Shown piece by piece: positions 3,673 to 38,800 of a stretch of 39,054 nt of DNA (its first letter is position 1; each line of letters starts with the position of its first letter). The notes beneath the pieces were generated by a model. The model worked only from the letters and a program-made list of their open reading frames with translations. It ran no database searches and had not been told where the DNA came from. The translations under genes and the position numbers were made by a program. The stretch is from Reclinomonas americana ATCC 50394 (Eukaryota): NCBI GenBank assembly GCA_048213135.1, contig PS015183.1, positions 21,608 to 60,661 on the forward strand. The letters run 5' to 3'.

Positions 3673-6600
3673 ATGACCAGCGACATCCGCACTGTCATGT
3701 CGCAGGCCATTGAGGCTCTGGCGAGACACGATGCTGCCGGGTATGCCGAGGCCGCGTCTGTGTTGCGACGTGTGTCACCAGAGACCGTGAAAGTGCGTGC
3801 ACACACAGAGAGAGAGAGAGCAGAGAAGAGTCATCTCCGCGCGCGCGCGTGACCTCATGCGCATGACACAACGCGTGCAAGACACGTGAAATGCAGCAGC
3901 CACTGACACACACACGCACTCACATGCTCTCTCACCCTTCTCACTCTCTCACACACACTCGCATCTCCGTGTGATTTCCCTCTCATTCCTCTCTCTTTCT
4001 GCTCTGTCTCGCTCACACAGACCCCCGACGATGTGGTGGCGGCCTTTGTGGAGGATCTGTTCCAGGCGTCGCACCTGGAGGACCCGCATGCACTGCATCA
4101 GCTGACCTTTCTGACACGCATTGCCAATACCTATGCCGTGACCACACTCGAGGTGCGCAACTTCAAGCACAAGAGAGAATAGTCTGCCTTCACTTCTCCA
4201 CTCTACTCACTATGTGATGATGATGATGATGGTGTCAGCTGCTCGAGCTCAAGAGCATCGGAACCAACTTGGCTGGTGCGTTCTTTTTCAGTGTCGTCGT
4301 CGTCGATATAGTTTGTACTCATTTTTTCTCCGTCGTACACAGTGCTCACCGACACACTGGCGCGACTCCAGCGAGTGTACAAGAGCGCCAGGCGGCTGGC
4401 ATCGTCGAACAAGCGCGAGCCGTACTCGCAACTGTTGCTGGAGTTGCAGCTGCTGGAGTGGATGCTGGTGTGTGTGTATTGAGACAGACTCAATTCTCCG
4501 CTCCGTCTCTCACGTGGCTGTTGCGCAGGAGGCAATGGTCAAGGTGGCCGTGCACGGCCATCCGCCAGGCCCCATGGACAAGTCGACGTCGACGCTGTTG
4601 GATGTCGGACCGGGTTTGCCGCTCCGCGCGCTGCGCACGGCGTTGCGGGCCAAACCGGCGTCTGGTGAGATGCCGCCCTTGAATACTGCGTTTTTGGCGG
4701 CACTGGCCGACGCGCCACGCAAGAACACACTGCGAGTTGCGTCCCCGGCGCTTCTCCCTTGTCGTGTGTATGTTTTCAAACTCACGCGCATCGCATCGAC
4801 AGCACGTGGTTTCCATTCATGTCCTCCGCGCGACCGCCATTGCCACCCTGTCGGAGGTGCCCCTCTTACAACTGCACTGCTTCTTCTCCTTCCTCGTCTC
4901 ATGTCGTCTTCGTTGCAGAGCGAGGCAATCACGGCCGTGGAGCACATTCAGGAGTTCCGCAACCGCTCCAAGATGGACGAACTAGTCAAGCTCGCCGTCA
5001 TCAGCGCCCTCTTTGAGATCGTCGCCTGCAGCAATTCGCACGTGGTGTGCGAGGAGGCGTACTTTGGCACAGGCCACCGCAACGGCAATCCCCAATATCC
5101 CGGTCTTCCTGTTGCGTACGCACAGCAGCACACAACAACGAGCATGTACGAGCTCACTCACCCCATTCTCTTTCAACATGGGCACACAGGAATTCATGCA
5201 ATCAAAGGTCGATCTCGTGCACAGCATGGCCGTGCGCGGCCTCATTGACCTGCTGGAACACCCTCTGCCGTCGATTCGCACCAATGCGCAAGAGGTGCTG
5301 GAGGCGAAACGCGTGAAGATCCCCACCAATCGCCCCTCGTGGGAAAAGATCACCACTGAGCGCTTCGAGCAGCTGGGTGAGGGTGGTGGTGGTGGCAGTC
5401 GCGGTGGTGGCAGCAGTGCCGACCCGGCACGCAGGCAGCCGAATGGCACGTCTTCTACTGCATCGGCTGTGGGCAACGGGTCGGAGATGCCCACACCCCT
5501 GGTGACCATTGCCAGTGGGGTCGCTGGTGTGCCGATGGTGGTGGTGACACACGTGGGCGCCTCGGCCGCTGCTCAGGCCTCTGGGCAGCAACGTTCCATG
5601 GCAATGTCACCGCACAGCGACATTAGCGACAGTCACAACAACACGGAGAGTATTCGTTCGCTGGCCAGCGTCGGCTCCATGGCCTCCATCACGTCTGTCA
5701 ACCCTGTGCGCGAGGGCCGCCGGCACCGTCCCTCCTTTGGCGTGCCCGGTGTCTCGGGCATGCATTCCGACGCACACTCCATGCTCGGCTCCGAGCTCGC
5801 CACGGCAGTCGAGGACAATGTGGTTTGTGTGAGCAGAGCGAGTTTATAGAGTGAGTGAGAGACACGAGAGTGTTGACTGGCGCGCACAGATCGGACCGAG
5901 TCGGAGGCGGCATGGCACGCACTCGTTCGTGCACCGCACCTCCAAGTTCCCCATCTCGCGCTGCGTGGAGCGATATCGCGAGCTGGTTCGCTCGCTGTAC
6001 GACCAGGCATTCTCGGTGGACACCTCCGAGTCGCAGGTTTGTCTGCATGTGTGTTTGTAACATGGCGACTCCACGGCACTGAATAATGGTGTGCAGGTGG
6101 TGGTACTGCACGGCCCACTGGGTGCGTGCGCAGGTGATGTGGCGAGTACGTATGCCGACGAGCGCTACGAGGATTACTCGGCGGTGTACACGATTTTCAT
6201 TCGCGATCCGCGAGATGTCAAGTCAGGTGCGTGAGAGTGAGAAGGGAAACTGACATCTCACCCTCTCACCTCCATGCCTGCACAGAAATTCTCCGCATCA
6301 TTCACGAGAGCCACTTGTACTCGGTCGGCATCACCACCGACGAGCTTCTGTCGGCGTTCCGCAAGTCACACTCGGACAGCCAGTCGAAAGTGCTGGTGGC
6401 GGCCGTGGTGATTCCAACATGCGACCTGGCAGCCATTCATCACGCGCTGCGTACGTACCTGGCCTCGAACAAGTTGCACCTGCTTTTGCTTGTCGGTGAC
6501 GAAGTGCCGCCGGTTGCCACATCGCACTCGCTGCGATCGGCCGCCGCTCCCCCGGCTGCACCACAACCGGTGCTGATGGTGGGATCGGCGCCTACACCCT

Positions 6601-9600
6601 CGCCGCTGGAACGGTGTCTGGCGTCGGCGCCGGCCGGCTCGCGCGTGTTCCGACTCGCTCGCTTCCAGCAGGCCGACTGCGTGCAACTACTGTCGCAATA
6701 CCTCGCGCATGAAACCAGTGCGTCGCCAAGCGGAAGCTTCACCGCTGCGTCGGCGGTCGCTGCTGGTGGGAGCGGAGGTGGTCGTGTCTCGGAGAGTGTG
6801 GCCGACTTCCTGGTGCGCACGTTTTCGGATTCGCCACTGGCGCAGTTGCTGGCGGCGGCCGCGCTGCGCAGTGTGTGGCGGCGTTCGCTGGTCGGCGGAC
6901 TGGCCCAGGAGATTGACGAATCGCTCAAGCAGTGTGGCTTGCCTGGCGGTCGTGCGGTAGTGAGCGACGAGCATGTGGGCGTGCGCCGCGTGGTGGCCTC
7001 GATGCTGCGTCACGTGTCACAAGCGTCGCCGTTGGCCACGGAACTGATGGAGATGTTTGCGGTGCTCGACTCGCGTCCGGTGCCGACCACGTTCTGGCGT
7101 TTCTGGGCGCGCATGCATGGATTTGTCGGTGGCCAAAACACCGACGAGATGACGTGCGTGTCGGCGTTTGCACTGGGCGCCGGCGGCGACGACGATCGAT
7201 TCTTGTCACGAGCCTTGTCCTCTCTCGACGAGTTGGCGCTGATTGTGCAAGTGGACTCGGAGCTCTACGACATGCACCCGGGCGTGCGGCGTGCGATTCT
7301 GGCCGGCATGTCGCCGGTGCAGCAGACGACGCGTGCGGAGGAGGCTCACGCGTTGCTGCATCGCTTGTACTCGGACACCGTCAGCCTCGGCACCAGTTCG
7401 CGGTATCACCTCATGCTCGTGCAACTGTTGCCACACGCCCTGCACATCTCCAAGCTGAACGAGGCCGGTCCGGAAAATTGCGAGTTGCAAGTGCATGTGG
7501 CGTCGCTCTACTTGAGCGAAGTCGGCGACTGGGTTCACGCGGAGGAGGCTCTTGCCGCCGCCACCGCCTACAGCGAAGGCGATGGTCGGCAAGCGCGCTC
7601 TGTTTCGGTGAAGGTGCGCTGCGCCGTTCGCTTGCAGCGTGCGCAGGTGCTGATGGCACGCGGAGCCGTGCAAGAGGCCGTCAACTTGCTGCGGACCACC
7701 ATTGAGGTTTGTCACAGTAGTCGTCGCCATGTTGAGGGGATCTCACGTGCCTCGTGATTTCACTGATGTGTGTGTGCGTGCAGCTCCCGGATGTGGCGTC
7801 CGAGCCGTCGGTCATTGCACAAGTTCACGAGGGGCTGGCCGACTGCCTCACGTACTTGGGAGATCATGCCGATGCAGCGGCGGAGCTGCGCCGCTGCATG
7901 GAGCTGTGGGAGGAGTCAGAATACGGCAATCGCATTCGGTGCAGTCTCAAGTACGCTCGCATCTTGGTGGAAGTTGGCGAGGCGCGTCGTGCCGAAAATG
8001 TGGCCATGCTGGCGCTGGCCGAGGAGTCTGATGACGTCGATGGAGACCCGCTCTCTCGACGCTACGCCGGCGCCTCCACTCGGACCAAGCGTACCGACAT
8101 TGACGTGATCAATCTGCGGATAGCGCGCGCGAGTGCGCTGGAGGCACTGGATCATCCGGACAGCGCCATGGAGGAGTATCGGATTGCGTTGCAGGCCATG
8201 TCCCGCATCACTGCACGGCGGCACCCCATTACTCCACGCATCGAGATTGCCACTGGGCGCTTGTTCTTTGCGGCCGGCAATGTGCCAAAGGGCTCGAAAC
8301 ACCTCATTCGCGCCAAGCGCCTCCTGTCGGAGATGTTTGGGCCGCTGTCGGGCGCCCTCGGACCGCTGCTGTCGACGTTGATTTACGAGCACCACATGCG
8401 GAGCTGGACGGCGCACGCCAACAAGTACGAGGCCGAGCTGACCTGTGTGTTGTGTGGACCCGATCCGCCGCCACCGGAGGAACGGTGGTTGCTGGCGTAC
8501 CGATTGGGCGAGCTGCACTCGATGCTGCTCAACTCCAAGAAGGCGCTCGAGTACTGGAATATGGCGGTGCTGGTGTCGGGCGACTTGCGCGAGCGGCAAC
8601 GGCCGCTGTGGCGAGCGGATTCGCTGGCGGCACTCGGCGCCGAGCTGGTGCAATTGAACCAGCTGGAGCGTGGTATCGACACATTGCAGGATGCCGTTCG
8701 CATGTACCAGAGTGCCGTGCAGGCGGCGCACACGCGCACCGAAGCGCAGGCGCTGAACCTGCTTCCCGGTTACATGCGGGCGCGACTGCAATTGGCACGA
8801 GTGACACGCTCGAACGCCGAGCGCGAACAGGAGATTCGTCGGTGCGTGATGTGAGAGATGGGCGAGGAGAGAAAGGAGAGAGCAGAGTGGTGCTCACAAT
8901 CGACTTTTGTTCCACAGCTTTGTGCCCTATTTTGAGGCGTATGCCGATCCGAGCCAGCAAGTCGGTGGTTCTCCGTATCCACGCATCCTCACCGCGCTCA
9001 TGCTCCGCAACGCACAATGGTGCGCGCGCGTCGGTCCCGGTGTCAATTCATCGATCGACGCGTTGCTGGAGGAGACTGGTCTCATTGAGTTGGCCTCGGT
9101 GCGGACGTCGCCATCTTTGTGTGTGTGTTTCATTCTCGCGCGCCGTCTCACATTGTTTGATGCAATGCAGACGTCGCTGTCGCCAGAGCTGGCATCGGTC
9201 CCTGAGGCATCGTCGCTGGAGACGCTGCTCACCGAGCGCACACAGCTGGGACAGCTGTCGGCCTGTCTCCGTGCCGCAATTGTGCTTGCAGAAGATGTGG
9301 GACAGGTTCGGCGCGCGCGCGCGTGTGTGCTGCCATCAATGTCTTGTCGTTGTCGCTGATCGCTGTCGTGCACTGAGCAGCCGCAGGTGGCGGTCACACT
9401 CTCCGACTATTTGGCGAACACATATCAACGGCTGTACGGACCCGATGCTGCCATGCGCGCCCGTGAGCTGATCCGGCAGGCGCGGCTGTTGAAGCAGATG
9501 AACTACATTGACGAGGCTCTCGAGGCGGAACGCGCTGCGAATCAGATCGTTAGCCCTGCATTCAACCGCAATGTGACATCGACGGCGCCAGAGACACCGG

Positions 9601-12767: not shown

Positions 12768-13755
12768 NNNNNNNNNNNNNNNNNNNNNNNNNNNNNNNNN
12801 NNNNNNNNNNNNNNNNNNNNNNNNNNNNNNNNNNNNNNNNNNNNNNNNNNNNNNNNNNNNNNNNNNNNNNNNNNNNNNNNNNNNNNNNNNNNNNNNNNNN
12901 NNNNNNNNNNNNNNNNNNNNNNNNNNNNNNNNNNNNNNNNNNNNNNNNNNNNNNNNNNNNNNNNNNNNNNNNNNNNNNNNNNNNNNNNNNNNNNNNNNNN
13001 NNNNNNNNNNNNNNNNNNNNNNNNNNNNNNNNNNNNNNNNNNNNNNNNNNNNNNNNNNNNNNNNNNNNNNNNNNNNNNNNNNNNNNNNNNNNNNNNNNNN
13101 NNNNNNNNNNNNNNNNNNNNNNNNNNNNNNNNNNNNNNNNNNNNNNNNNNNNNNNNNNNNNNNNNNNNNNNNNNNNNNNNNNNNNNNNNNNNNNNNNNNN
13201 NNNNNNNNNNNNNNNNNNNNNNNNNNNNNNNNNNNNNNNNNNNNNNNNNNNNNNNNNNNNNNNNNNNNNNNNNNNNNNNNNNNNNNNNNNNNNNNNNNNN
13301 NNNNNNNNNNNNNNNNNNNNNNNNNNNNNNNNNNNNNNNNNNNNNNNNNNNNNNNNNNNNNNNNNNNNNNNNNNNNNNNNNNNNNNNNNNNNNNNNNNNN
13401 NNNNNNNNNNNNNNNNNNNNNNNNNNNNNNNNNNNNNNNNNNNNNNNNNNNNNNNNNNNNNNNNNNNNNNNNNNNNNNNNNNNNNNNNNNNNNNNNNNNN
13501 NNNNNNNNNNNNNNNNNNNNNNNNNNNNNNNNNNNNNNNNNNNNNNNNNNNNNNNNNNNNNNNNNNNNNNNNNNNNNNNNNNNNNNNNNNNNNNNNNNNN
13601 NNNNNNNNNNNNNNNNNNNNNNNNNNNNNNNNNNNNNNNNNNNNNNNNNNNNNNNNNNNNNNNNNNNNNNNNNNNNNNNNNNNNNNNNNNNNNNNNNNNN
13701 NNNNNNNNNNNNNNNNNNNNNNNNNNNNNNNNNNNNNNNNCGCAATCACTTTCAT
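9686..13755 (-). CDS. DPH6: Diphthine--ammonia ligase with C-terminal RidA/YjgF-like domains, multi-exon, interrupted by an N-gap
   Basis: MKVIA start at 13755 runs into the gap. Downstream motifs: ELDSWMYQTV, GDETEDL, VSSGAILSDYQRLRVENVCARLGLVSLAYLWRRDQ, HVCGEGGEYETLTLDSPLF. RidA-type segments: NAEYRRHVGLHNPPSR, LHVQSISAWAPACIGPYSQ, AGQIALDP. The last exons chain to TGA at 9686-9688. Confidence 0.92.
12701..12766. repeat. (GT)n microsatellite, preceded by a purine-rich tract from ~12412, in a DPH6 intron
   Basis: Perfect GT run of about 33 units abutting an N-gap. Confidence 0.95.
12768..13740. other. Assembly gap (others at 15289-15990, 30850-30934, 31859-32639, 37069-37641)
   Basis: Runs of N, mostly next to microsatellites. 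Confidence 1.
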
Positions 13756-13860: not shown

Positions 13861-16255
13861 ATGGTGCGTATTACAGAGGAGATGCTGCGCAAGCGGTCGG
13901 AGCACAATGAGGTGAGTTGTGTGTGTGAAAGAGGGCGGGAAAAGGAAAGAGGCGGGTGATCGTTGTTGACTGACAACTCTCTCTCTCTCAACAGGGTCAA
14001 CTGAGTACTCTGGAGGAGGTGTGTCTTGTGTGTGAGTGTAAGGAGATTGTGCAGATGCTCACACGCAGCTTGCACAGATCACGTTGCATCAGTTCGACAT
14101 TGGTTGGTGATGATCTTCTCTCTCCTCTCCTCTACTCTCTCTTTGTCTCTCTCTCTCCTTCTCTCTTTCCTTCTCACTTCTTTCCTCTCTCCTTCTCTCT
14201 TCTCTCTTCTCTCCTCTCCCCTTCTCTCCTCTTCTCTGTTCTCTCCTGTCTCTCTCTTCTCTCCTTCTCCCTTCTCTCCTGTCTCTCTCTCTTCTCCTTC
14301 TCACTTCTCCACATCACAGAGCGCATTGAGCTGCTGGGCGACTACTGCCGCAAGCTGCGCATTGTGTATCTGCAGAACAATCTCATTCCCAAGATCGAGA
14401 ACCTGCACCACCTGAAAGAGCTGCGATACCTCAACTTGGCCATCAACAACGTGTCGCGCATCGAAGGCCTCGAGCAGAACGAGGCACTGGAGAAGTTGGA
14501 TCTCACGGTGAACTTTGTCGACGATCTGCTCAGCATTGAGTCGCTGCGCGGCAACTACAATCTGCGCGAGATCTACTTGACGGGCAATCCGTGCACGCAG
14601 TACGAGGGCTACCGGGAGTTTGTGATCAATGCGCTGCCGCAGCTGACGGTATGGTCTTTGTGTGCTTGTTTGTGTCTGCGCGGCTCGGATGTTCACCTCG
14701 CGGTGCAGTGGCTCGATGGGCAGGAGATCACGCGTGGTGAGCGGCTGCTGGCCGCACAGAGGCGCGAGGAGGTGCGGGCACGGATTGTGGAGCAGCAGGC
14801 GGTGGCGATTGCGGAGAATCAGGAGAAGGAGCGGCAGGCGGCGGAGAAGATCCGCAAGCAGCGCGAGGACGATGAGGCGCGCATCCAGCGACAACTCGAG
14901 CAGCAGAGGGCGGCCGCTGGCGAGGGTGAAGGTGTGTGTGTGTGTGTGTGCATGTGAGAAAGAGAAAGAGTGGATTGGGCGTCGAGGGATTCATGTGGTG
15001 ATGTGCACAGGATCGTCAAGTGGGGCGGCGCCTGCGGAACCAGTGGAAACCGATCCGTGGGCACTGGCCGTCGACGCCAGCAAGGAACACACGTACGGTC
15101 ACTCGCGAACGGAGCGTGTGGCCATCTACAGCGAGATTGAGGAGCTGCGACAAAAGGCTGGTGCGTCGCGCACTGTGGATCCGAATGGACTGACGGAGAC
15201 TGAGCGAGTTGCGTGATTGTGCCTTCTTTTCTTGTTGTTGCTGTGTGCTGACCCAGTGGATGCACAGGCGGGCAAGGCACCGAAACGTNNNNNNNNNNNN
15301 NNNNNNNNNNNNNNNNNNNNNNNNNNNNNNNNNNNNNNNNNNNNNNNNNNNNNNNNNNNNNNNNNNNNNNNNNNNNNNNNNNNNNNNNNNNNNNNNNNNN
15401 NNNNNNNNNNNNNNNNNNNNNNNNNNNNNNNNNNNNNNNNNNNNNNNNNNNNNNNNNNNNNNNNNNNNNNNNNNNNNNNNNNNNNNNNNNNNNNNNNNNN
15501 NNNNNNNNNNNNNNNNNNNNNNNNNNNNNNNNNNNNNNNNNNNNNNNNNNNNNNNNNNNNNNNNNNNNNNNNNNNNNNNNNNNNNNNNNNNNNNNNNNNN
15601 NNNNNNNNNNNNNNNNNNNNNNNNNNNNNNNNNNNNNNNNNNNNNNNNNNNNNNNNNNNNNNNNNNNNNNNNNNNNNNNNNNNNNNNNNNNNNNNNNNNN
15701 NNNNNNNNNNNNNNNNNNNNNNNNNNNNNNNNNNNNNNNNNNNNNNNNNNNNNNNNNNNNNNNNNNNNNNNNNNNNNNNNNNNNNNNNNNNNNNNNNNNN
15801 NNNNNNNNNNNNNNNNNNNNNNNNNNNNNNNNNNNNNNNNNNNNNNNNNNNNNNNNNNNNNNNNNNNNNNNNNNNNNNNNNNNNNNNNNNNNNNNNNNNN
15901 NNNNNNNNNNNNNNNNNNNNNNNNNNNNNNNNNNNNNNNNNNNNNNNNNNNNNNNNNNNNNNNNNNNNNNNNNNNNNNNNNNNNNNNNNNTCGCCAGTGG
16001 CAGAAGCAAATGGAGGCCGACATGGAGGAGACGGGTGACGGCCCTTATCTCTCTGACGAGGAGGGCGCCGATGATGACGATGATGTGGATGCAGAGAAGA
16101 GGTCAACTGGGGAATCCGCAGCCGCCGCCGCCTCTGCACCTCCACCACCCAAGCCACGAGAGAGTGTGGACTATCGCACAATCGTACGCGGTGGCAGCGG
16201 ATCAGTGGCGGCGTCAACACCCGCGATGCAAGAGCGCGAGACTCGACGACTATAA
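13861..16255 (+). CDS. LRRC6: Dynein axonemal assembly factor 11 (LRRC6/tilB/Seahorse), multi-exon, interrupted by an N-gap
   Basis: Spliced N-terminus MVRITEEMLRKRSEHNE|GQLSTLEE|ITLHQFDI|ERIELLGDYCRKLRIVYLQNNLIPKIENL. LRRs include YLNLAINNV and EKLDLTVNFV, followed by the LRR cap LTGNPCTQYEGYREFVINALPQL|WLDGQEI. The 3' end after the gap is less certain. Confidence 0.92.
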
Positions 16256-19736: not shown

Positions 19737-21324
19737 TCACTTTTCTTCTGGTCGCACAACGACGGCCGGAGTCTGCTGCCGCGCTGGTGGATGCGCGCGT
19801 GTCGACGGTGGCGAGATGATATCCCACATGTTGGCCCATATGGAACCGCGGTCGTAGAAATTGCGAACTTCCACCTCGTTCCACACTCGTTCCAGTTCCT
19901 CTTCGGTGACGGTCTCGTCGTTGAGGTTGATTGCGGCCGCTGATTGAGAGCCGGCTCCACGTTGCTTGATGTGGCCGCTGGAAGAGGCGGGATTGGACGG
20001 GGTGCAACCGGGCGGCTCCTTGGCACCGCGCTTCGACTTGTCCTTTTTCTGTTGCTTGGCAGTCGACGTCTTCTTGTCGTCGACAATGCCGCCGGCGAGA
20101 CGCAGCTGCCTCCGGCGACGGTAGTAATCGGCGGTGGAGTGAATGTCTTGCCACTTGAATGACTCGGCGGTGGTCATGTTGCGCGACATGAGGTACTTTG
20201 CAGAAATGGAGAAGTGAGCAACAAATGGTTGCATGCACGTTGCCACCACGAAGACGCACCAGGTGGTACACAGTGAACCACAACAGGAACCCGACAAACA
20301 CCGCGGAGAGGATGAAGAGGAACACCAGTGCCGAGTAGTAGCTCATCAGGTACTGAGCGGGAAAGCATGAGCGAGAAGCGTGCGCAGGGGTGAGCACGAG
20401 CTGCACACCTGCAGAATGGTCCAGTGCGTGGGCCAGTACATCTCCTCGGTCTCATACACCACAAACTGGCGGTTGTACAGATCCTGCGAGGTGACAATGT
20501 GCAGCGCGGTGGCCAGCGCCGTGTACATGCCGTACGACACCATGGCGAGGTTGACAAAGAGGAACGCCATAAAGTGGCGATAGTTGAGCTCGCCAATGTC
20601 GGTGTTGAGCCACACACAGTGGTGATCCATGCGCTGCGACACGCGCGTGTGAGCGGTGGAGAGAGACACAACAAACAAAGGAAGAGTTGTCTGCCACACG
20701 CAACTGCAACACACTGATTGCACACGGAGCAGTGCTTGGAGCGCGCGGGTCGCTCAAACTTGCACGTGCCACACGTCTTCTCCACGTACAACAGCTGATC
20801 GAGCTCATATGCTGCCGCGTACTTGGCCACATTCCGCTTGGTGATCACTCCCGGGTCGGCAAACGAGGCCCACACAAACATGGCCAGTGACGCGCCAACA
20901 ACCACCATACCACCATACCTTCACGAGAGAGAGACACACACACAGGGTGAGCGTCTTGCTTGCCTGTGTGTATGTGTGTGGCGACTCACTGATGCGCCTC
21001 TGAGAGGTACTCGTGTGGCAACTCGGCGGCGACTGTGTCCTCGAAAAAGTAGAGGCCCGTGAGCAGCAGCAGCACGTAGAGGATCTGCACGAGTGGGTTG
21101 GGCGTGCGAGTCACGTAGTGCTGCAGGCGGTGCCAGAGAGTGCGCGGTGGGGCATCGTCGCCTGTGACTTGTGATCGGCGTGTGCAGTCGAGCTTTTGCA
21201 GGAGGGCTTCGCGGGTGCGGCCGACCCAGGTGTTCTGCAGAGCGGGTGTGTTGCCGCAGCCGCAGACGAGGAGGAGGAAGCCGCCGGTGGCGGTGTAGAG
21301 GGTGAGGATGATGGCGGGCCACAT
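19737..21324 (-). CDS. DHHC protein S-acyltransferase (SWF1/ZDHHC4-like), multi-exon
   Basis: DPG motif (FADPGVIT); cysteine-rich domain CGTCKFERPARSKHCSVCNQCV..MDHHCVWLNTDIGELNYRHF; TTxE motif (NMTTAESFKW); NFYDRG..AN motif; several hydrophobic TM segments. Start at ATG 21324 (MWPAIIL). Confidence 0.93.
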
Positions 21325-21396
21325 GAAGTAGAGAAGGGAGAGGTGAGAAAGTCCTGTCCGCCTATGTTTCGTTTGCAAACTAAACAGACGCGGACG
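21325..21396. promoter_or_regulatory. Putative bidirectional promoter between the DHHC gene and NLR-like copy 1
   Basis: Only 72 bp between the predicted divergent start codons (21324 on minus, 21397 on plus). Confidence 0.5.
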
Positions 21397-24300
21397 ATGG
21401 CGTTGCTGACAGACGAGGAGTTGCGTATGAGCTCACACCTCCTACTTCTCCACACTCCTCTCACTTGCGCTGTGCCCCAGATCGAACTACGTGCGCGCCA
21501 TGAAAGTTATGCACGGCGTGGCTGCTCGTGCGCTGCGTGCACTGGTGGACCAAGAGCTGCCTGTGTTTGTGCGACGATGCGCGGAGGAGACGGAGGCGTC
21601 GGGAGCGGGGAAGGTGGAGTTGATGAGAGAGTGGATGAAGAAGCAGGTCACCAAACGAGATGCGCGGTGTGTCTTGTCTGACTTCCGCTCTTCTCCTTGG
21701 CCTCCATGCTGATGCCGGGCGTCGCACAGCACTGCGCCAGCGGGATCAGACCGTGAGCGAGTGTTGTGCTATGACTCGTCGTGTGCTGCCATGGACGAGT
21801 GGCAGCGTGCGTTTGACGCTGGCGAGCCAGCTCCCTCGTGCCAGGCGTTTGACATTACGTGGCTCACGTCGGTGTTGCTGAACGCACGCTGGGCGCTGCG
21901 GGTGGACGCCGCTGCGCACGAGGTACGACATCTGATCTCCGACGCAGCGCAGGTGTGCGGATAAGTGCATGCTTTCCTCCCTCTCTCTCTCTCTCATCCC
22001 TCGCTGCAGCGCGAGGCGATCGGCGGCCTGCGTGAGTTGCGCAATGAGCTCATGCACACAACAAACATGCGGCTCTCTGCAGAGAGACTGCTCCAACTAC
22101 TGGGAGACGAGGGCAAGGATGGACAAGTCGCTGTGCTGTTGCAACAAGCTGGCGTTCCGCAGCTGGACAACTTCTTGCGAGAGATTGATGCCATTCGTCG
22201 CGGTGCGTGTGAGCAACAGCGTGCATGCATGTGTGTGACGAGAGCGATGCTCATCACTATTGTTTGTTGTTGCCTCACTTGCAGCCGCGGAGCCGGTGGG
22301 TAACCCACTCACCTTCTGCAACGTGGGTCAGCTGGAAGGGTTCCCGTTTCCCAGTCGTGTAGTCGAGGCCGAGCGACTCGCCGAGCGACTGCTGGAGTGT
22401 GATGCTGGTGAATAGATGTGGTTTTTCGTTTCCTCATTCTCTCTCTCGCACTCATCCGCCCTTTCCATCTCTTCCCTCGTAGGTGACACACCCGGAATCA
22501 TTGTGCTCTCTGGTGAAGGAGGAAGCGGGAAGACCACACTGGCGGAGCTAGTGGTGTCGGAGATGGAGCGTAGGAAGTGGCGCGGCTCGGCTATGTACTC
22601 AGATATGCGCGGTCACACTGCCGATGCTCGTCACTTCACGTCGGTGAGTGAGGAATGAGTGGATTTTTGTGTGCAATAGGTGTGTTGTTAATCGTGGTGA
22701 TGCAGACAATGGAGGTGCTCGGGAACGGACTGCGGGGATTCGCGCACGCCATGATGCCGGTGCAGTCGAATGCACAGCTGCTGGCCCAGATTGATGCGTG
22801 GGAGCGGAGCGAAGATGTGGATGCGCTGCGCAGCCGTTTTAGTGACTTGATGCATGACAGTCACGGCGTGCTGTTGCTTGACAATGTCGGCAGTGGAGAC
22901 CAAGTGCTGGCAGTTCTGCGAGCGGCAGGCGCGCGCAGTCGAGTTCGTTCAGGTGTGTGCGTGTATGGGTGAGCTGAGTAGATCTTCCACTGGCTCACTA
23001 TCGCGTCTGCTGAGTACAGGCATGACCGCACCAATGACAATCGTGACCACTCGATTCAGTCGAGTAGCAGAGCAGCTGAAGCAATCGCCGCTGCTGAGCT
23101 CGTTGACGGTGTTGCATGTGGCCGTGGGTGATGTGGAACTGGAGGATGTGGCCAAGTATGTGCGTCAGCAAATCGATGCACCGGAGGAGATCTGTGATGA
23201 GGTCACACAAGCGACGGTAGCGAAGCCGCAGGCATTTCGTGTTGCCATGTGTATGAGGTACGCTCTCGCGCATAGCGCTTCTCTCACCGCTTAACGAGTG
23301 ACTGGGGGATGGCACACGCAGTATGCTTGGACGTGAGTCGCTGGAAACACTTGCTGGTGATGAGTTGCATGGACGACTGGCCGCGACTCGAGCGCTCGCA
23401 CTGGAGGAGCTAATGAGCAAGAATTTGGCGGAGTGTTCGCCGCTGATGCGACGTGTGCTGGTGCTGGTGGCGGCTTTGCAGCAGATGCGCGTGCATGCCA
23501 CTAGTCGTATGGTGTCACTGCTGATTCGGGAGATCGGTTTTGGCGAAGCTTCTTCGACCGTCCAGTTGACGGAAGAGGTTGCTGGCGGAGGCAGTAGGGA
23601 GGACGATATGCATGACGAGAGAGTTCTAGAAGCATTGGAGCGGCTTCGTCGGTCAATGATGTTGCAGGCCAGGGTGTCACATTCGTGTGATGCGCTGTGC
23701 CAAATGATTCCCGGTGGTGACTTTGCGGGCTCGCCCTCGAGGGTGGAGTACGGAGTTCACGACCTCGTGATGGAGTGGCTCGTTACGGAAGAGCGAGAGG
23801 GTGAGCTCCTCGAGTGGAGAGATGTTGTCTCTACCATGGTGCTGAGTGGTCTAACTCGCTTCGCTAACAGCGAGATTAGCGACGCGGCACTTGCCGACAT
23901 TCGTCCATGTTTGCAAGTGTTGTGGAGTATTTTGTTGCCAATTATGACACGTACATGGATTTGCGGCACAGTGCCAGTTGAGGTGCTTGAATTGTGGCTC
24001 GATGGTGTGCGTGTGCTTACTCAACTTGTGGAGAGACGACTTCCAGTCGGCGAGTTTGAACCAGCGGTGGCGGTGGAATGTGCTGGGTGGCTGCGCACAC
24101 AATCCATTGACGAAGGCGATCGGAGTTTGCTGCACGTGAGGGCACTTTGTGTGGCAGGATTGTTGATAAGCGCGCGTCGCGACAGTCACGCGGCCGAGTA
24201 TTTGGAGGGGTATCTGACGACAATCAACCCCACGGATGATGTAGAAATGGTAGCAGTAATCCGACTTCAGTATGCAGACTGTCTGCAGAGAACGGGCAGA

Positions 24301-25614
24301 TTTACCGAAGCAGAGCAAGCGTTTCGGGCGGAGTTGGCGTCAACGAGGGAGGTGCTTGGTGACACGCATCACTACACGCGCGTTTCCATAAACAATCTTG
24401 CGCTGTGCATCCAGGCAAACGGTAAACTCTCCGAGGCTGAACGGTTGTTTCTAGAGGTGCTGGCACTTAGTCGTGAGGTGTATGGTGACAGGCATCCAGA
24501 CACGCTGTTGACCATGAACAATCTCGCCTCGTGCATTCAGGCGAGTGGCAATCTCGCCAAAGCTGAGCGGCTGTATCGGGAGGTGCTGGAGCTGCAGCGT
24601 GAGGTGCTTGGGGCATTGCATCCAGACACACTGTTGTCCATGAACAATCTCGCCTTGTGCATCCATAAGAGCGGCAATCTCTCCGAAGCCGAGCGACTGC
24701 ATCGAGAGGTGTTGGCGTTGAAGCGCGAGGTGCATGGCGACAAGCACCCAGACACGCTTGCGTGCATGAACAATCTCGCCATGTGTATCCAGGAGAGTGG
24801 GAACCTCGCTGAGGCCGAGCGACTGCATCGGGAGGTGTTGGCGTTGCAGCGTGAGGTGCTTGGTGACCGACATGCAGACACGCTGAGGTTTGTGAACAAT
24901 CTCGCCGTGTGCATCCAGGAGAGTGGGAACCTCGCTGAGGCCGAGCGACTATACCGGGAGGTGTTGGCGTTGCAGCGTGAAGTGCTTGGTGAAAGGCATC
25001 CACTCACGCTGCTGTCCATGAACAATCTCGCCATGTGCATCAAGGACAGCGGCAATCTCGCCGAAGCCGAGCGACTTCATCGAGAGGTGTTGGCGTTGCA
25101 GCGAGAGGTGCTGGGTGACAGGCATCCAGATACGCTGACGTCCATGAACAATCTCGCCTTGTGCATTCAGGCGAGCGGCAATCTCGTCGAAGCCGAGCGA
25201 TTGCATCGGGAGTTATTCACGTTGATGCGTGAGGTGCACGGTGACAGACATCCACTCACGCTAGCGTCCATGAACAATCTCGCCATGTGCATTCAGGCGA
25301 GCGGCAATCTCGTCGAAGCCGAGCGATTGCTTCGGGAGGTGTTGGCGTTGCAGCGTGAGGTGCTTGGCGACAGGCATCCACACACGCTGATGACCATGAA
25401 CAATCTCGCCTTGTGCATCAATGAGAGTGGGGACCTCGCCGAAGCCGAGCGACTTTATCGGGAGGTGTTGGCGTTGCGGCGTGAAGTGCTTGGTGACGCG
25501 CACCCAGGCACACAGGTGTCGGTCAATAATCTTCGCACAATTGAGCAACAGCAGCGAGCTCGAGTGTCACAAGGGTGCTCTCTTACACGTACCCGCACGT
25601 GCGTTTTCCTGTAA
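21397..25614 (+). CDS. NLR-like protein copy 1: HEPN - NB-ARC/STAND ATPase - helical/winged helix - ~10 x 42-aa TPR - CaaX
   Basis: Predicted exons include 21397-21419, 21481-21666, 21730-21952, 22010-22202 and a last exon 23322-25614. Translation: MALLTDEESNYVRAMKVMHGVAARALR...QAFDITWLTSVLLN...LRELRNELMH. Walker A GEGGSGKTT (22512-22538), Walker B GVLLLDNV, TIVTTR, GVHDLV. TPR consensus MNNLAxCIxxSGNLxEAERLxREVLALxREVLGDRHPDTLxS. C-terminus CVFL. Confidence 0.9.
24262..25530 (+). repeat. Coding tandem array of ~10 x 126-bp TPR units
   Basis: atgaacaatctcgcc recurs at a 126-bp period (e.g. 24514, 24640, 24766, 25018, 25144, 25270, 25396). Confidence 0.95.
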
Positions 25615-25872
25615 GTTTGGCCCAGTGAATAACTCTATCGCTCTGAAGCGCTGCTGTATATATAATGTACACTTGCAAGCTTGACTTTACGTGAAGTGTT
25701 TGTTTAGTATATTTCCCAAGTCCATAATCATTAACGCATTCTGCACAGCTGGCGTGCTATCAACAAGCAGACAAGCAGACCAGGAGCGTCTTGTCCTGCT
25801 GGCTTGTTTTTCAGCAAATCTGGCGCTGCGTAGTCAGACGGACAGCTGCTGTCAACTTGATAGAATTCGCTC

Positions 25873-28800
25873 ATGGCGCTGCTGACAGACGAGGAGTTGT
25901 GTATTACACACCACCTCCTTCTCCACATACCACCTCCTCTCACATGCCTTGTGCCACAGATCGAACTACGTGCGCGCCATGAAAGCCGTGCGTGGCGTGA
26001 CTGCTCGTGCGCTGCGTGCGCTGGTGGACCAAGAGCTGCCTGTGTTTGTGCGGCAATGTGCGGAGGAGACGGAGGCGTCGGGGGCGGGGAAGGTGGAGTT
26101 GATGAGAGAGTGGAAGCAGAAGCAGGTCAACAAACGAGATGCACGGTGTGTGTCTTGTCCAACTTCCACTCTTCTCCTTGGCCTCCATGCTGATGCCGGG
26201 TGTCCCCACAGTACTGCGCCTGTGGGATCAGACCGCGAGCGAGTGTTGTGTTTTGACTCGTCGTGTGCTGCCATGGACGAGTGGCAGCGAGCGTTGGATG
26301 CCGGCGAGCCTGCTCCCTCGTGCCAGGCGTTTGACATTACGTGGCTCACGTCGGTGTTGCTGAACGCACGCTGGGCGCTGACGGCGGACGCCGCTGCGTC
26401 CGAGGTGCGCCATCTGATTTCCGACGCAGTGCAGGTGTGCGGATGAATGCATGCTTTCCTCTCTCTCTTCTGCCTTCTCGTTCTCATCTCTCTCGGTGCA
26501 GCGCGAGGCGATCAGTGGACTGCGTGAGTTGCGCAACGAGCTCATGCATGGTGCAGACATGCGGCTCTCCGCAGAAGGACTGCGCCAGCTATTGGGAGAC
26601 GAAAGCAAAGATGGACAAGTCGCTGTGCTGCTGCAACAAGCCGGCGTTCCGCAGCTGGACACCTTCTTGCGAGAGATTGATGCCATTCGTCGCGGTGCGT
26701 GTGAGCAATAGCGTGCATGCATGTGTGTGAAGAGAGCGACGCTCATCAGTAGAGGTTGTTGTTTCTGATACGCAGCTGCGGCGCCTGTCGGCAACCCAAT
26801 CACCTTCTGCAACGTGGGTCAGCTGGACGGATTCCCATTTCCCAGTCGTGTTGCCGAGGCCGAACGACTCGCCGAGCGACTGTTGGAGTGTGATGCTGGT
26901 GGGCAGATGTGGGTTCCCTTTTCCTCATTCTCTCTCTCGCACTCATTCACTCTCTTTCTCCCTCACAGGTGACACACCCGGAATCATTGTGCTCTCTGGC
27001 GAAGGAGGAAGTGGCAAGACCACACTGGCGGAGTTGGTGGTGTCGGAGATGGAGCGCAGGAAGTGGCGCGGCTCGGCGCTGTACTCGGATATGCGCGGTC
27101 ACACTGCCGATGCTCGTCACTTCACGTCGGTGAGTGAGGAATGAGTGATTTTGTGTGCAATTGTGGTGTTGATCGTGATGATGCAGACGACGGAGGTGCT
27201 CGGGAACGGACTTCGCGGGTTTGCGCATGCCATGATGCCAGTGCAGTCCGATGCACAGCTGCTGTCTCAGATTGATGCGTGGGAGCGGAGCGAGGATGTG
27301 GAGGCACTGCGCAGTCGTTTGAGTGACTTGATGAATGACAGTCACGGTGTGTTGTTGCTTGACAATGTCGGCAACGGAGACCAAGTGCTGGCAGTTCTGC
27401 GGGCGGCAGGCGCGCGCAGTCGAGTTCGTTCAGGTGTGTGCATGGTGGATGAGCTGAGTAGATCACCCTGTGGCTCACTACCGCGTCTGCTGCGAGCAGG
27501 CATGACAGCACCAATGACAATCGTGACAACTCGATTCAGTCGAGTAGCCGAGCAGCTGAAGCAATCGCCGCTGCTGAGCTCGGTGGCAGTGGTGCACGTG
27601 GACGTGGATGATGTGGACAGGGAGGACGTGGCCGAGGCCGAGCGACTGTATCGGGAGGCGTTGGAATCGAAGCGTGCGGTACTTGGTGACAGACACCCAG
27701 ATGCGCTGGCGTCCATGAGCAATCTCGCCAGCTGCCTCAAGGCAAGCGGCAATCTTACCGAAGCTGAGCGACTGTTCGGAGAGGTGCTAGCGCTGAGGCG
27801 TGAGGTGCTAGGCGAGAAGCACCCAGACACGCTGGCATCAATGAGCAATCTTGCCAACTGTATGCTGGCGAGCGGCGTTGTTACCGAAGCTGAGCAACTG
27901 CATCGGCAGGTGCTCGCATTGAGGCGCGAGGTACTTGGTGACAGGCATCCGTCTACGCTGGCATCCATGAGCGATCTCGCCGTCTGCATGCAGGCGAGCG
28001 GCGATCTCTCGGAAGCCGGGCGACTGTATCGAGAGGTGCTGGCACTGAGGCGTGCGGTTCTGGGAGACAGGCATTCGGACTCGCTGTCTTCCATGAGCAA
28101 TCTCGCCAGTTGTCTGTTGGCAAGCGGCAACCCGACTGAAGCCGAACAGTTGTATCGCGAAGTGTTGACGTTGAGGCGTGACAAGCTCGGCGACAGGCAT
28201 CCGGACACGCTGACTTCTATGAGCAGTCTCGCCAGCTGCATGCAAGCGAGCGGCAGATTTGCTGAAGCCAAGCAACTTTATCAAGAGGTTGTGGTGCTGA
28301 GGCGCGAGGTTCTCGGTGCCAGAGATCCCGACACGCTGACATCGATGAGCAACGTTGCCACTTGTGTCCACGCCAGTGGCAATCTTGTCGACGCCGAGCG
28401 ACTGTACCGGGAGGTGCTGGAACTGAGGAGGGAGGTGCTTGGTGTCAGGCATCCACGCACAGTGTCGTCCACGTACGATCTCGCCATCTGCATCGAGGCC
28501 AGCGGCAACCTCACTGAAGCAGAGCGACTGTATCGTGAGGTGTTGGCATGGAGGACAGAGGTGCTGGGTGCCACTCGGCCAGACACGTTGACTGTCATGA
28601 GTGATCTTGCCCGGTGCACGCAGACGAGCGGCAATCTCGTCGAAGCCGAGCGCCTCTTCCACGAGGTGTTGGTGCTGCGACGGGAGGTGTTTGGTGAAAA
28701 GCACCCCGACACGCTTGCGTCCATGAACAATCTTGCCTTGTGCATCCGGGCCAGCGGCAATCTCTCCGAAGCCGAGCAACTGCATCGAGAGGTGCTGGCG

Positions 28801-30057
28801 CTGAGGAGAGAAGTGCTTGGCGAGAGACACCCAGACACGCTGGCGTCCATGAACGATCTCGCCAACTACATGCAGGCGAGCGGTATCGTCACCGATGCAG
28901 AGCGTCTGCATCGGGAGTTGCTGGCGCTGAGACGCGAAGTGCTCGGCGACAGGCACCCCGACACGCTGTTGTCCATGAGCGACCTCGCCAGCTGCATGCA
29001 GGCGACTGGCGACCTCGCCGAGGCCGAGCGACTGCACCGAGAGGTGTTGGCGTTGAGGCGTGAGGTGCTTGGCGACAGGCATCCGAGCACGTTGACGTCC
29101 ATGGCCAGTGTCGCCAAGTGTATGCAGGCGAGTGGCAATCTTGCCGAGGCCGAGCGACTGTTTCGAGAGGTGTTGGCACCGAGACGCGAGGTTCTCGGTG
29201 ACAGGCACCCCGACACGCTCGCGTCCATGAACAGTCTTGCCAACTGCCTGCAGGAGAGCGGCAACCTCGTCGAAGCCGAGCAGTGGCTTCGGGAGGTGTT
29301 GGCGTTGCGACGGAGCTCACTTGGCGACAGAAACCCGGACACGCTTACATCTGTGAGCAGTGTCGCCACGTGCGTGCAGGCGAGCGGCAATCTCACCGAA
29401 GCCGAGCGATTGCACCGGGAGGTGTTGGCGTTGAGGTGCGAGGTTCTTGGTGGCAGGCATCCGCACACGCTACTGTCGATGGCCAGTCTCGCCAGGTGCT
29501 TACAGGTCGGCGGCAATCTTGCCGAAGCCGAGCGACTGTATTGGGAGGTGTTGGCATTGCAGCGTCAAGTGTTTGGTGACAGGCACCCACTCACGGTGTC
29601 GTCCTTGAGCAACCTCGCCACGTGTGTTCAGGCCAACGGCAACGTCTTCGAAGCCGAGCGGCTGTACTGGGACGCGTTGACGTTGCAGCGGCAGTTGCTT
29701 GGTGACAGGCACGCTGACACGCTGTCGACCATGAACAATATCGCCAACTGCATGCAAGCGAGCGGCAATCTGGAGGAGGCCGAGCGACTGTATCGGGAGG
29801 TGTTGGCGTGGCGGCGGGAGATGCTTGGTGACCGACACCCAGCGACGCTGTCGACCATGAACAGCCTCGCCAGTTGTCTGCAAGAGAGCGGCAATCTCGC
29901 CGAAGCCGAACGACTGTATCGCGAGGTGCTGGCGCTGCAACGTGAGATGCACGGCGACACGCACCCAGACACACAGCAGGCGCTGCACAACTTGCGTGCA
30001 GTTGAGCGACAGCAGCGCAGCGCACAGCGATGCTTGCGCAAGTGCGTTCTCCTCTGA
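25873..30057 (+). CDS. NLR-like protein copy 2: HEPN - truncated NB-ARC (P-loop domain only) - ~18.5 x 42-aa TPR - CaaX
   Basis: Same exon/intron layout as copy 1 from ATG 25873 to ~27633. RNELMH at 26532-26549, GEGGSGKTT from 26998, then LLLDNV and TIVTTR. The sequence then passes directly into TPRs (EDVA/EAERLY). Last exon 27500-30057. C-terminus CVLL. Confidence 0.9.
27631..29990 (+). repeat. Coding tandem array of 18 full plus one half 126-bp TPR units
   Basis: The 42-aa unit MSxLAxCxQASGNLxEAERLYREVLALRREVLGDRHPDTLxS was counted in the ORF 27145-30057 translation. Confidence 0.95.
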
Positions 30058-30223: not shown

Positions 30224-35698
<5,475 letters not shown>

Positions 35699-35838
35699 AA
35701 GCTGAACTCTACAATTAGTGCCACCTCTGCTATTTACCAGCTGCTGTATAATATATTCGGCGTAAATAAAGCGGTACACTTTGCGACAGCACTCAAATGT
35801 CCGTCTCTGCTTTCGCTCGAGCATCAACAGGGCAAGCA

Positions 35839-38800
35839 TTACCGACCGAGATCCGACAAGTCGATTCTGAACTGCTTGGTGGCGGCACCCGCGCTCTTCT
35901 GACGGCGGTTCTTGAACACGGAGCCATCTTGCAGTTCGCGGACCATCGAGTCCATAATGCCCTTCTCCGGTGCTGCTGGTGCCGCCGCCGACGCCGCCGC
36001 AGTGGACGAGCTGCCAGCTGCTGGCGACACGGGCGAGGCGGCCACACGCGAGGCCACGCCGCCACCACCGCCAATGGCCACTGCGCAGCAAGTGACACAA
36101 GCAAAAAAATGAGACCAAGACATGCGCATGGATCAGCAAGACAAATATCGAACCGACAGACGCCGCTGCCGCCGCTGACTGAGCCATGGACTGGCGCTGT
36201 GCGGCCTCGCGCCTGGCAGCCTGCTCCTCTGCCTTCTTCCGGCGCTCCTCCACCTTGCGCAGCTCGGTGATGGACACTTCAAAGTCCCTGAGGAAAGACT
36301 CCATGTTCTTGAAGAAGCTCTCCGGATCAAACTTCTTTGGCTCCTCGCCAAAGAACACGGCCAACTTCTCCAGGTCGTCCTGCAGCGTCGTAAAGTCGCT
36401 GCTGACAGACTCCCACTCGCGATGATGCTCGTCGAGGAACGCCTGGTGGGGGGAGGGGAGGGGAGAACAGTAAGACAACCGAACGACAGTGACTTGTGAG
36501 TGCCTGGTCGACAAACCTGCATGACGCCCTGGAACCTGTCGCCAGCACCGGCGGCCTGTTGAATCTGGTCCTGGATCAATTTCATCGACTTGCTGACGGC
36601 GGCAATGTCGTCGCGCAGCGCGGGCATGTTCACTGCGGTGCAAGGGTGAGACCGGAGAGAGGGCGAAGGGAAGGGAAGGGAGGTGAAGAGAGAAGATGGA
36701 GAAGGATGACGGGCACGAGCGACAAAGAAGAGGGCTGAAACGAAGAGAGTGACGCGGAAGGGAAGACGGAGGGAAGGAGGAGCGAGAAGGAGGAGTGGAG
36801 AGAAACAGGGAGGAAAAGAGAAGGCAAGAGTGACACTACCGAGAAGGAAGAGAGGAGAGAAAGGAGGTGAGGATAGCAGCAGCAAGATGTTCGGGGGAAG
36901 GAAGAGAGACGAATGAAAGCAGAAGATAGCGAGAGACATGGAGAGGACGCAAAGATGGATGCGTCACACTGCGAGTTTGAAAAGTTGTGTGCGTGTGTGT
37001 GTGAAAGGGAGAGAGAGAGAGGAGGGAGAGAGAGAGAGAGAGAGAAGAAAGCATCGTGCGCATACTCCNNNNNNNNNNNNNNNNNNNNNNNNNNNNNNNN
37101 NNNNNNNNNNNNNNNNNNNNNNNNNNNNNNNNNNNNNNNNNNNNNNNNNNNNNNNNNNNNNNNNNNNNNNNNNNNNNNNNNNNNNNNNNNNNNNNNNNNN
37201 NNNNNNNNNNNNNNNNNNNNNNNNNNNNNNNNNNNNNNNNNNNNNNNNNNNNNNNNNNNNNNNNNNNNNNNNNNNNNNNNNNNNNNNNNNNNNNNNNNNN
37301 NNNNNNNNNNNNNNNNNNNNNNNNNNNNNNNNNNNNNNNNNNNNNNNNNNNNNNNNNNNNNNNNNNNNNNNNNNNNNNNNNNNNNNNNNNNNNNNNNNNN
37401 NNNNNNNNNNNNNNNNNNNNNNNNNNNNNNNNNNNNNNNNNNNNNNNNNNNNNNNNNNNNNNNNNNNNNNNNNNNNNNNNNNNNNNNNNNNNNNNNNNNN
37501 NNNNNNNNNNNNNNNNNNNNNNNNNNNNNNNNNNNNNNNNNNNNNNNNNNNNNNNNNNNNNNNNNNNNNNNNNNNNNNNNNNNNNNNNNNNNNNNNNNNN
37601 NNNNNNNNNNNNNNNNNNNNNNNNNNNNNNNNNNNNNNNNNAGAGAGAGAAAAGCATCTGCGCATATCCTTCGATCTGTACCTCGGCTGGCGTCGGGAAT
37701 GTGCGCCAGATCGGCACGCAGATCCATCAAGTCGGGATACTTGGTCTGGCACAGACGCACAATGTACATCAGCAGCGTCATGCCCTCAGCTCCGCGCGTC
37801 TCCTTCAGCTTGCCGAGCGACTCGAGTCGGAAACCGTACGCATTGCCACGGAATCCGCCGCCGTTCATGTAGTTGCCAATGGCCAACACGATCTCCAGCA
37901 GACGCGTCAGCTTGGTGCTCTTGCGCAACTCTTGCGCGGCAAAGGTGACATTGCTCAATTGCTGTGTGCACGAGCACGGATGAGAACTGAGAACAAGAAG
38001 TGCACGAATTATGAACACACGCGTACCGGCACAATGTCGTCCACCAGTGCGCGGTACTTGTATGAGAACAGCCAGCACTTCATGCGCGCCTCGAGACGCG
38101 GCACCGTACCGATCTGATGGCAAGGCACACACATCAGCACTCAACATGCACCTCATTTTCGTCCTCTCGCACACACACTCGCGCGAGACGCAACGACGCG
38201 AACAAACTGCTCCGCACGACCGAGCTCGCCCTGACCATCCCAGCTGCCGACCAACTCGACCTGTCACCGCCACACCACGATGAGTGAGCACGAGCAGATG
38301 CACGGCAGAAGCGGTGCGGCACACAAACCTCTTCGGCTGTTGGCGCAATGTTGATCAGCGCTTGCACGTGACGCTCTGTCAGCACATCGCGGTTCATCTG
38401 GATGATGGCCTGCCGGAGATCCTCAAGCGGAATCTTCGCAAACGTGGAACCGAGCACAATGCCTGCGCGACAAATCGACATAGTGCGTAAGCACAAGCAC
38501 ACACACGCCACTAAACAGGGACGTCGCTCTCAACTCATGTTCTGGTTGCGCTTGCCCTCCAGCAACGACACAATCGCCGGGCGACTCGACGACGCCGACG
38601 CAGCGGCTGCCGAGGCGGCTGGTGCGGATTCCACAGCTGAGAACATGGACTCGAGCGAGTCTGTGTCGAGGTCGACCGACGACAGGTTCTCCACAATCTT
38701 GCTCTCCGTCCAAATCGAGCCTGCGACCTTGATCGGCTGCACCTTGTCCCACTGCACGCCCTTCAGTTTGGTCTTCGGAGCGTACTTGGGGAGTGGTGGC

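Follow-up and report, generated by a model that had tools for sequence, protein, structure and literature searches.

We analyzed a 39,054-nt stretch of genomic DNA from the protist Reclinomonas americana ATCC 50394 (contig PS015183.1, positions 21,608 to 60,661 of the forward strand), hereafter called the window, to whose own numbering all coordinates refer. Two neighboring genes on its forward strand, gene 1 (21397..25614) and gene 2 (25873..30057), were found to be recent duplicates kept by purifying selection. The encoded proteins are best described as NLR-like STAND proteins, in which a helical head of about 200 amino acids (aa) with the motif RNELMH is followed by an NB-ARC/AP-ATPase-like NTPase and by highly regular kinesin-light-chain-type TPRs, and the head may represent a HEPN RNase effector. 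We consider the chances of this reading as a whole to be about even.

In the spliced models, gene 1 consists of nine exons (21397-21419, 21481-21666, 21730-21922, 22010-22202, 22285-22407, 22483-22643, 22706-22952, 23020-23257, and 23322-25614) with a coding sequence of 3657 nt (1218 aa), and gene 2 of eight exons (25873-25895, 25960-26145, 26212-26404, 26502-26694, 26776-26898, 26969-27129, 27187-27433, and 27500-30057) with a coding sequence of 3684 nt (1227 aa). Position 21397 is the first base of the gene 1 ATG, and position 30057 is the end of the gene 2 stop codon. Exon borders were set by eye on the window DNA and were then checked against the other copy. All 15 introns are of the GT..AG type with a length of 57–97 nt, and the frames are open in both spliced models. 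Exons 1–7 are equal in length between the two genes (23, 186, 193, 193, 123, 161, and 247 nt), and every one of the seven corresponding intron pairs is unequal (61/64, 63/66, 87/97, 82/81, 75/70, 62/57, and 67/66 nt in gene 1/gene 2). For intron 6, the acceptor was taken to be ...GATGCAG, which both genes share, since gene 1 has a nearer CAATAG that does not serve as an acceptor in gene 2. What follows ...VRS represents intron 7, which breaks the frame in gene 1 and is in frame and stop-free in gene 2. We dropped two other solutions, one with intron 6 ending at CAATAG and one with either a 29-nt intron or a frameshift at 22953 in gene 1; only the chosen model gives GT-AG borders and an open frame in both paralogs.

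A preliminary description of this DNA had proposed a tandem pair of spliced genes whose N-terminal domain is split over four exons and is not contained in any single open reading frame (ORF). The tandem pair was borne out by two intact GT-AG models with a paralog-conserved exon structure, and the domain is indeed divided among exons of 23, 186, 193, and 193 nt. The peptide pieces quoted at that time are spread over different forward-strand frames of stop-to-stop ORFs between 21.4 and 30.1 kb. The statement about single ORFs has to be modified for gene 2, in which exons 2 and 3 share ORF 25886-26446 together with the 66-nt intron between them. Introns 2 (26146-26211) and 7 (27434-27499) of gene 2, each of 66 nt, are both in frame and lack stop codons, which lets ORFs 25886-26446 and 27145-30057 run across exon borders. 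An annotation based on ORFs would thus add 22 spurious residues at each of these two introns.

The two genes gave one blastn alignment of 1775 nt with 88% identity, which starts exactly at both ATGs (21397 and 25873) and whose gaps sit in the stretches called introns. Identity between the genes is 91.6% in exons versus 82.3% in introns, and the two proteins agree at 91.6% of their first 403 aa. The ratio of nonsynonymous to synonymous substitution rates (dN/dS; Nei-Gojobori) is 0.163 over 403 collinear codons, with a dS of 0.255; for aa 1–198 the ratio is 0.245 and for aa 199–403, which correspond to the NTPase, it is 0.097. Equal exon lengths, unequal introns, and low dN/dS make up the pattern of two expressed and selected coding genes, and it is mainly this pattern that supports the splice model. 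The stop codon of gene 1 and the ATG of gene 2 are separated by 258 bp (25615-25872). Considering that the copies are alike only from their ATGs onward, the region upstream of gene 1 was not carried over to gene 2. On the opposite strand, ORFs for a DHHC palmitoyltransferase (20174-21432; DHHC E = 1.2e-6) precede gene 1, the upstream hydrophobic one of which ends near the gene 1 ATG, and these genes may therefore share a short divergent promoter region.

The Walker A, LLLDN, and TIVTTR motifs noted in the preliminary description are all present in the spliced products of both genes. Walker A (GEGGSGKTT) lies at aa 250 (22512..22538 in gene 1 and 26998..27024 in gene 2), Walker B (LLLDN) at aa 349 (22871..22885 and 27352..27366), and the sensor-1/RNBS-B-like TIVTTR at aa 382 (23037..23054 and 27517..27534). 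The motif set of NB-ARC proteins comprises a GxGGxGKTT P-loop, an hhhhDD Walker B, the TTR of sensor 1, GLPL, and MHD. An MHD-like VHDL was found in gene 1 only (aa 600, 23755-23766) and is part of the presumably full switch of that gene. For the P-loop exon of gene 1, NB-ARC was the best STAND model (22.7 bits), followed by nSTAND3, NPHP3_N, and NACHT. Exons 6–8 of gene 2 share one frame with a single stop in an intron, and the stretch was read through with X at this stop and used as the NTPase query. AAA_22 (6.9e-6, residues 2–133) and AAA_16 (2.4e-5, residues 2–144) span Walker A to Walker B of this read-through. NACHT reached 17.1–18.9 bits against a cut-off of 26.7, and the repeats are TPRs, so the proteins do not have the NACHT plus LRR composition of animal NLRs. 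We are moderately confident that the predicted NTPase is a STAND-type P-loop protein, most similar to the NB-ARC/AP-ATPase group.

The assignment of the TPR arrays is certain. By anchoring on the E-A-E-R-L motif, we counted 10 units in gene 1 (24307..25566) and 19 in gene 2 (27634..30027), each of exactly 42 aa (126 bp). Both kinesin-light-chain-type families score above their gathering thresholds with E-values of 1e-102 to 1e-194: TPR_12 with 361.3 bits (E = 2.4e-110) in gene 1 and 628.5 bits (E = 9.6e-194) in gene 2, and TPR_10 with 331.1 and 610.4 bits, respectively. The 126-bp period that had been reported for both genes was also recovered with Tandem Repeats Finder, at 24349-25511 (9.2 copies, 80% matches) and 27631-29972 (18.6 copies, 72% matches). 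At the DNA level, the units of gene 1 are 79.9% identical to one another and those of gene 2 71.0%, and the value for comparisons across the two genes is 72.6%. Column entropy of the units peaks at positions 33, 26, 42, 35, and 23, and the scaffold positions are nearly invariant. A tblastn search of the window with the TPR units of both genes gave no match outside 24268-29994, and hence none at a separate forward-strand ORF of 372 aa (7736-8854) that contains TPR_12 (E = 2.5e-11). The latter may join the long ORFs 6138-7757 and 8104-9471, which match no Pfam family, in another TPR protein gene.

The N-terminal domain, which is predicted to be all-alpha and is a candidate HEPN domain, is encoded by exons 1–4 (21397..22202 in gene 1, aa 1–198; 25873..26694 in gene 2). 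The three motifs quoted for it previously are present in both spliced proteins: NYVR at aa 10, FDITW at aa 110, and RNELMH at aa 145–150 (22040..22057 in gene 1 and 26532..26549 in gene 2). RNELMH is a candidate Rx4H catalytic motif. RNxxxH occurs once in each protein and is conserved in both as RNELMH; a six-frame translation of the 39-kb window contains six stop-free instances, two of which are those of the two genes. According to section 6 of PMC3710099, the HEPN motif is Rx4-6H, in which R is typically followed by a polar N, D, or H, and a second conserved acidic residue is found upstream, typically within Ex3[KR]; section 7 of the same paper places the motif at the end of helix 3. RNELMH fits this pattern and has the polar N after R. 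One Ex3[KR] is present upstream of it, at aa 58 in both genes, and is a candidate for the acidic residue of HEPN domains. In a low-confidence AlphaFold model of the read-through described below, a helix stops at residue 191, just before the motif His 192, and a further helix comes next; such a placement would be consistent with the helix-3-end position of the HEPN motif.

Single exons, or single-frame read-throughs in which X replaced the intron stops, served as queries in the family tests, a procedure that lowers the sensitivity of these tests. Exons 2–4 of gene 1 lie in a single frame that is interrupted by one stop per intron, and this read-through served as the domain query. DUF4559 (PF15112), which we take to be the CXorf38 HEPN family, was obtained with exon 4 of gene 1 (E = 0.041) and of gene 2 (E = 0.0091), and with the ORF of gene 2 exon 4 (E = 0.0023). 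When gene 2 exon 4 was used in an Atlas feature search against named clusters, the DUF4559 cluster ranked 3rd of 30 (0.83, PF15112 on 16% of its members), the HEPN_DZIP3 cluster 4th (0.81, PF18738 on 10%), and the Swt1-like HEPN cluster 6th (0.78, PF18731 on 92%), so that HEPN-related clusters make up three of the five rows displayed. Pfam and the Atlas, two independent methods, thus provide weak pointers to HEPN families, all of them on the motif exon. The pattern NYxR...FDIT..LLxN...RNxxxH may also resemble DZIP3-type HEPN domains, as the preliminary description had suggested. Based on these data, we rate the odds that the N-terminal domain is a HEPN domain as slightly better than even.

A number of observations weigh against the view of the pair as HEPN-headed NLR-like proteins. 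The splice borders are predictions from a comparison of the paralogs, and two paralogs are not independent witnesses. As for the NTPase, NB-ARC (PF00931) had been expected in the middle region and does score above its cut-off in the gene 2 exon 6–8 read-through (25.3 versus 23.5 bits), but only 26 residues (2–27) around the P-loop are aligned and the ARC part is unmatched. Walker B reads DN instead of DD, a motif search found no GLPL in either spliced protein, and no Pfam family matches the ARC region of gene 1 (aa 404–783).

The same holds for several results on the head. Each protein has 16 instances of the loose motif Rx4-6H, most of them in the TPRs, and the loose motif carries no weight. 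No Pfam family was matched by the gene 1 exon 2–4 read-through at E ≤ 10, or by exons 2 and 3, which make up about two-thirds of the domain, when scanned singly. The DUF4559 scores stay below the cut-off (13.8–17.9 versus 27 bits). A Swt1-like HEPN match had been anticipated, and a weak signal for HEPN_Swt1 did appear on the motif exon, but it is sub-threshold: the ORF of gene 2 exon 4 gave E = 0.17 and 12.6 bits against a cut-off of 27.5, covering profile positions 74–95 of 115. The other family that had been anticipated, HEPN_DZIP3 (PF18738), failed to appear at E ≤ 10 in a Pfam search of either the exon 2–4 read-through or any single exon. PADLOC returned no family for four N-terminal queries, and a search of PDB sequences with the N-terminal read-through returned no chain at E ≤ 10. 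With phmmer, the exon 2–4 read-through found no protein at E ≤ 0.001 among 1,835,955,588 representatives, a query that held about 50 intron-encoded residues and with which very distant relatives would not reach E = 0.001. An Atlas score under 0.9 is a lead only, and all HEPN-related clusters are under this value. MACPF clusters obtained from the Atlas for exons 2–3 (0.82–0.86) were rejected as noise of low recognition; that the neighbors of these exons are unrelated is a further point of this kind. Finally, the AlphaFold model (AF2, single sequence) of the exon 2–4 read-through consists entirely of helices and is unusable for fold comparison, with a predicted local distance difference test score (pLDDT) of 40.2.

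A possible but somewhat unlikely alternative is that the layout is NLR-like and the head is not a HEPN RNase. In this case it would be a lineage-specific all-helical signaling, adaptor, or membrane-attacking domain, similar in role to the HeLo, CC, or death-fold domains on fungal and plant NLRs, and RNELMH would be fortuitous. Such an explanation would account for the empty Pfam result of the exon 2–4 read-through, the lack of a relative among 1.84 billion representatives, and HEPN signals that are all sub-threshold and confined to one 64-aa exon. It would also suit exons 2 and 3, which have no Pfam match and have unrelated Atlas neighbors; moreover, bundles of four helices are widespread, and the loose motif occurs often. 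However, Pfam gave no match to death-fold, HeLo, CC/RPW8, or any other NLR N-terminal family either. In addition, three HEPN-related families surfaced by two methods on the very exon that contains RNxxxH, and this motif, in which N follows R as is typical, is located at a predicted helix end. We keep the HEPN assignment as the preferred one for the head.

The preliminary description had attributed one HEPN-STAND-TPR layout to both genes, which did not hold for gene 2. Collinearity between the proteins in blastp ends at aa 403; after ...EDVA, gene 2 goes straight into a TPR unit. It lacks the ARC/winged-helix segment of gene 1 of about 370 aa, including VHDL, and its repeats are almost doubled. 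In gene 1 this region (aa 404–783, 23103..24306) appears to comprise a helical ARC/winged-helix-like part and a linker, and an AlphaFold model built without an alignment consists of helices throughout (pLDDT 45.2). Because its frame and P-loop motifs are intact and dN/dS is low, gene 2 is probably functional and regulated differently from gene 1. With the ARC/winged-helix part lost and more repeats gained, it probably works in another way, be it as a partner of gene 1, as a decoy, or in a form under looser regulation.

One might argue instead that gene 2 is a non-autonomous copy, or one in decay, from which an internal deletion removed the ARC/winged-helix switch, leaving gene 1 as the only working NLR-like protein. 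The abrupt passage into TPR units after aa 403 and the loss of the MHD-like VHDL are what this would predict, and TPR units are less alike within gene 2 (mean DNA identity of 71.0%) than within gene 1 (79.9%). On the other hand, the spliced frame of 3684 nt is open, all seven introns are GT-AG, and Walker A, Walker B, and TTR are all intact. A long neutral phase of either copy is hard to reconcile with the pairwise dN/dS of 0.097 in the NTPase. Decay of gene 2 seems somewhat improbable to us, and a functional, differently regulated gene 2 is preferred.

In the accepted scheme for STAND receptors, the repeats bind a ligand, oligomerization depends on nucleotide, and proximity activates the N-terminal effector; HEPN RNases, whose metal-independent activity depends on R and H, for their part work through paired active sites. 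By analogy, and most likely, the TPR array would bind a ligand, which would release the nucleotide switch and allow the NTPase to oligomerize, and oligomerization might in turn bring the N-terminal domains together. If the heads are divergent HEPN RNases, the paired RNxxxH sites would cleave RNA, and this cleavage could lead to a defense of the growth-arrest or cell-death type. A more specific and quite speculative version, to which we give little credence, is that the head represents an uncatalogued, lineage-restricted HEPN family that serves protist NB-ARC-TPR receptors as their effector of death or arrest. Gene 1 as the switch-bearing receptor and the ARC-less, repeat-doubled gene 2 might then co-assemble via NTPase and HEPN, either to widen the range of ligands or to set an activation threshold.

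Searches for protein homologs of the genes of the pair found no relatives. Metagenomes scanned for exons 2–3 and for the ARC region yielded nothing, nor did prokaryote genomes scanned for the NTPase and for the TPR units or a viral scan, and one search of PDB sequences gave only P-loop noise (E-values of at least 0.026). The NTPase read-through matched four PADLOC families, of which mad8 was the best (1.3e-5), the others being TRIP13, VakA, and PDC-S73; no Avs or NACHT defense model was among these matches, and an assignment to the bacterial Avs/bNACHT systems is thus not indicated. Particular to this pair are a head that matches no family model significantly, the lack of a relative in the collections searched, and a recent copy without the ARC region.

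The HEPN-STAND-TPR layout itself has already been published for cnidarians, molluscs, Capsaspora, and bacteria, and the pair is a divergent variant of it. In Table 1 of PMC3710099, the HEPN domain of DZIP3/hRUL138 is listed as fused to TPR, NACHT, CARD, DEATH, and LRR modules and as a lineage-specific expansion in Nematostella, oyster, and Capsaspora; CXorf38-type HEPN is listed as fused to NACHT. DZIP3-type HEPN is given as the commonest partner of NACHT in nine cnidarians, with 17–83 proteins in anthozoans (PMC8260672). NB-ARC proteins of corals are reported to have mostly TPRs, and many have N-terminal DZIP3-like HEPN domains (PMC10236652), and DUF4559 is stated to be on 45 of 99 NACHT proteins of a clam (PMC8298618). 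The proteins described here resemble these cnidarian and molluscan NLR-like proteins in having an N-terminal helical domain with an Rx4H-type motif before a STAND NTPase, in the TPRs found on coral NB-ARC proteins, and in expansion by tandem duplication. They differ from them in that PF18738 and PF15112 are not significant and that the genes are GC-rich with short introns. In the parts of PMC3710099, PMC8260672, PMC10236652, and PMC8298618 that deal with the cnidarian and molluscan HEPN-NLR proteins, these are catalogued by domain surveys and their function is not assayed.

Capsaspora offers a parallel in a unicellular holozoan, with DZIP3-type HEPN fused to TPR or NACHT-type modules (PMC3710099, Table 1), but the domain studied here fails the HMM (hidden Markov model) of that family. 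The order of effector, STAND NTPase, and repeats is shared with the bacterial HEPN-STAND-TPR proteins Npun_F6454, MED222_16016, and Desac_1927, which are listed in the same table, and with HEPN-NACHT proteins, HEPN being named among the effectors of bacterial NACHT proteins (bioRxiv 10.1101/2022.07.19.500537). HEPN_Swt1 (E = 0.17) and the Swt1-like Atlas cluster are a weak pointer to the clade in which the bacterial HEPN-STAND-TPR proteins are listed. In contrast to bacterial proteins, the two genes contain seven or eight spliceosomal introns, and phmmer and the prokaryote genome scans gave no bacterial relative.

NB-ARC-TPR proteins were suggested as pattern-recognition receptors in the brown alga Ectocarpus and in Acanthamoeba (PMC4053784). 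With these and with the fungal ones, the pair shares TPR_10/12 arrays that come after an NB-ARC-like P-loop, TTR, and, in gene 1, an MHD-like motif. The passages of that paper on these proteins make no mention of a HEPN-like head, and the ARC region found here is too divergent for PF00931 past the P-loop. A further analogy is provided by the KEN domain found in RNase L and Ire1, a HEPN family according to PMC3710099, in which ligand-driven self-association juxtaposes two HEPN domains and turns on RNA cleavage. Their sensors are ankyrin repeats or a lumenal domain plus a kinase fold rather than STAND and TPR modules, and no sequence similarity was detected.

Other features of the window are an LRR_9/LRR_4 ORF on the forward strand (13974-14957, E about 1e-10) and the C-terminal end of a formin FH2 domain on the reverse strand (35399-36835, E = 4.2e-7), both of which look like ordinary cellular neighbors. 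Just downstream of gene 2, long CACT/CTCA-type microsatellites with SLTH repeats in several frames (30480-31230) flank an assembly gap. The window contains 3114 N in five gaps (12768-13740, 15289-15990, 30850-30934, 31859-32639, and 37069-37641), and scans of it for Rfam families and tRNAs were empty.

It seems quite improbable that the genes encode, instead of immune receptors, housekeeping or regulatory STAND-TPR scaffolds like nephrocystin-3-type proteins, whose head would serve RNA processing or protein interaction: TPR_NPHP3 (E = 5.2e-26 and 2.2e-45, below its 100-bit cut-off), NPHP3_N (E = 7.5e-4), the ordinary look of the DHHC, formin FH2, and LRR neighbors, strong purifying selection, and the lack of a known ligand or pathogen link would suit such a role, but a recent tandem duplication with domain loss and repeat doubling, no orthologue in the collections searched, and highly regular repeats with few hypervariable positions do not, the last being reportedly traits of fast-evolving NLR-like receptor families and not of single-copy scaffolds.

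If the HEPN assignment fails, the pair would be a duplicate of the ordinary NB-ARC-TPR kind, its helical head an orphan, and of modest interest. In corals, anemones, and bivalves, HEPN-headed NLR-like proteins belong to the most common predicted immune receptors, and in PMC8260672, PMC10236652, and PMC8298618 they are known only from domain counts. With its short introns and proteins of about 1220 aa, in a genome of unicellular style, this compact pair would be tractable for testing whether a STAND switch arms a HEPN RNase in a eukaryote, as has been proposed for bacteria.

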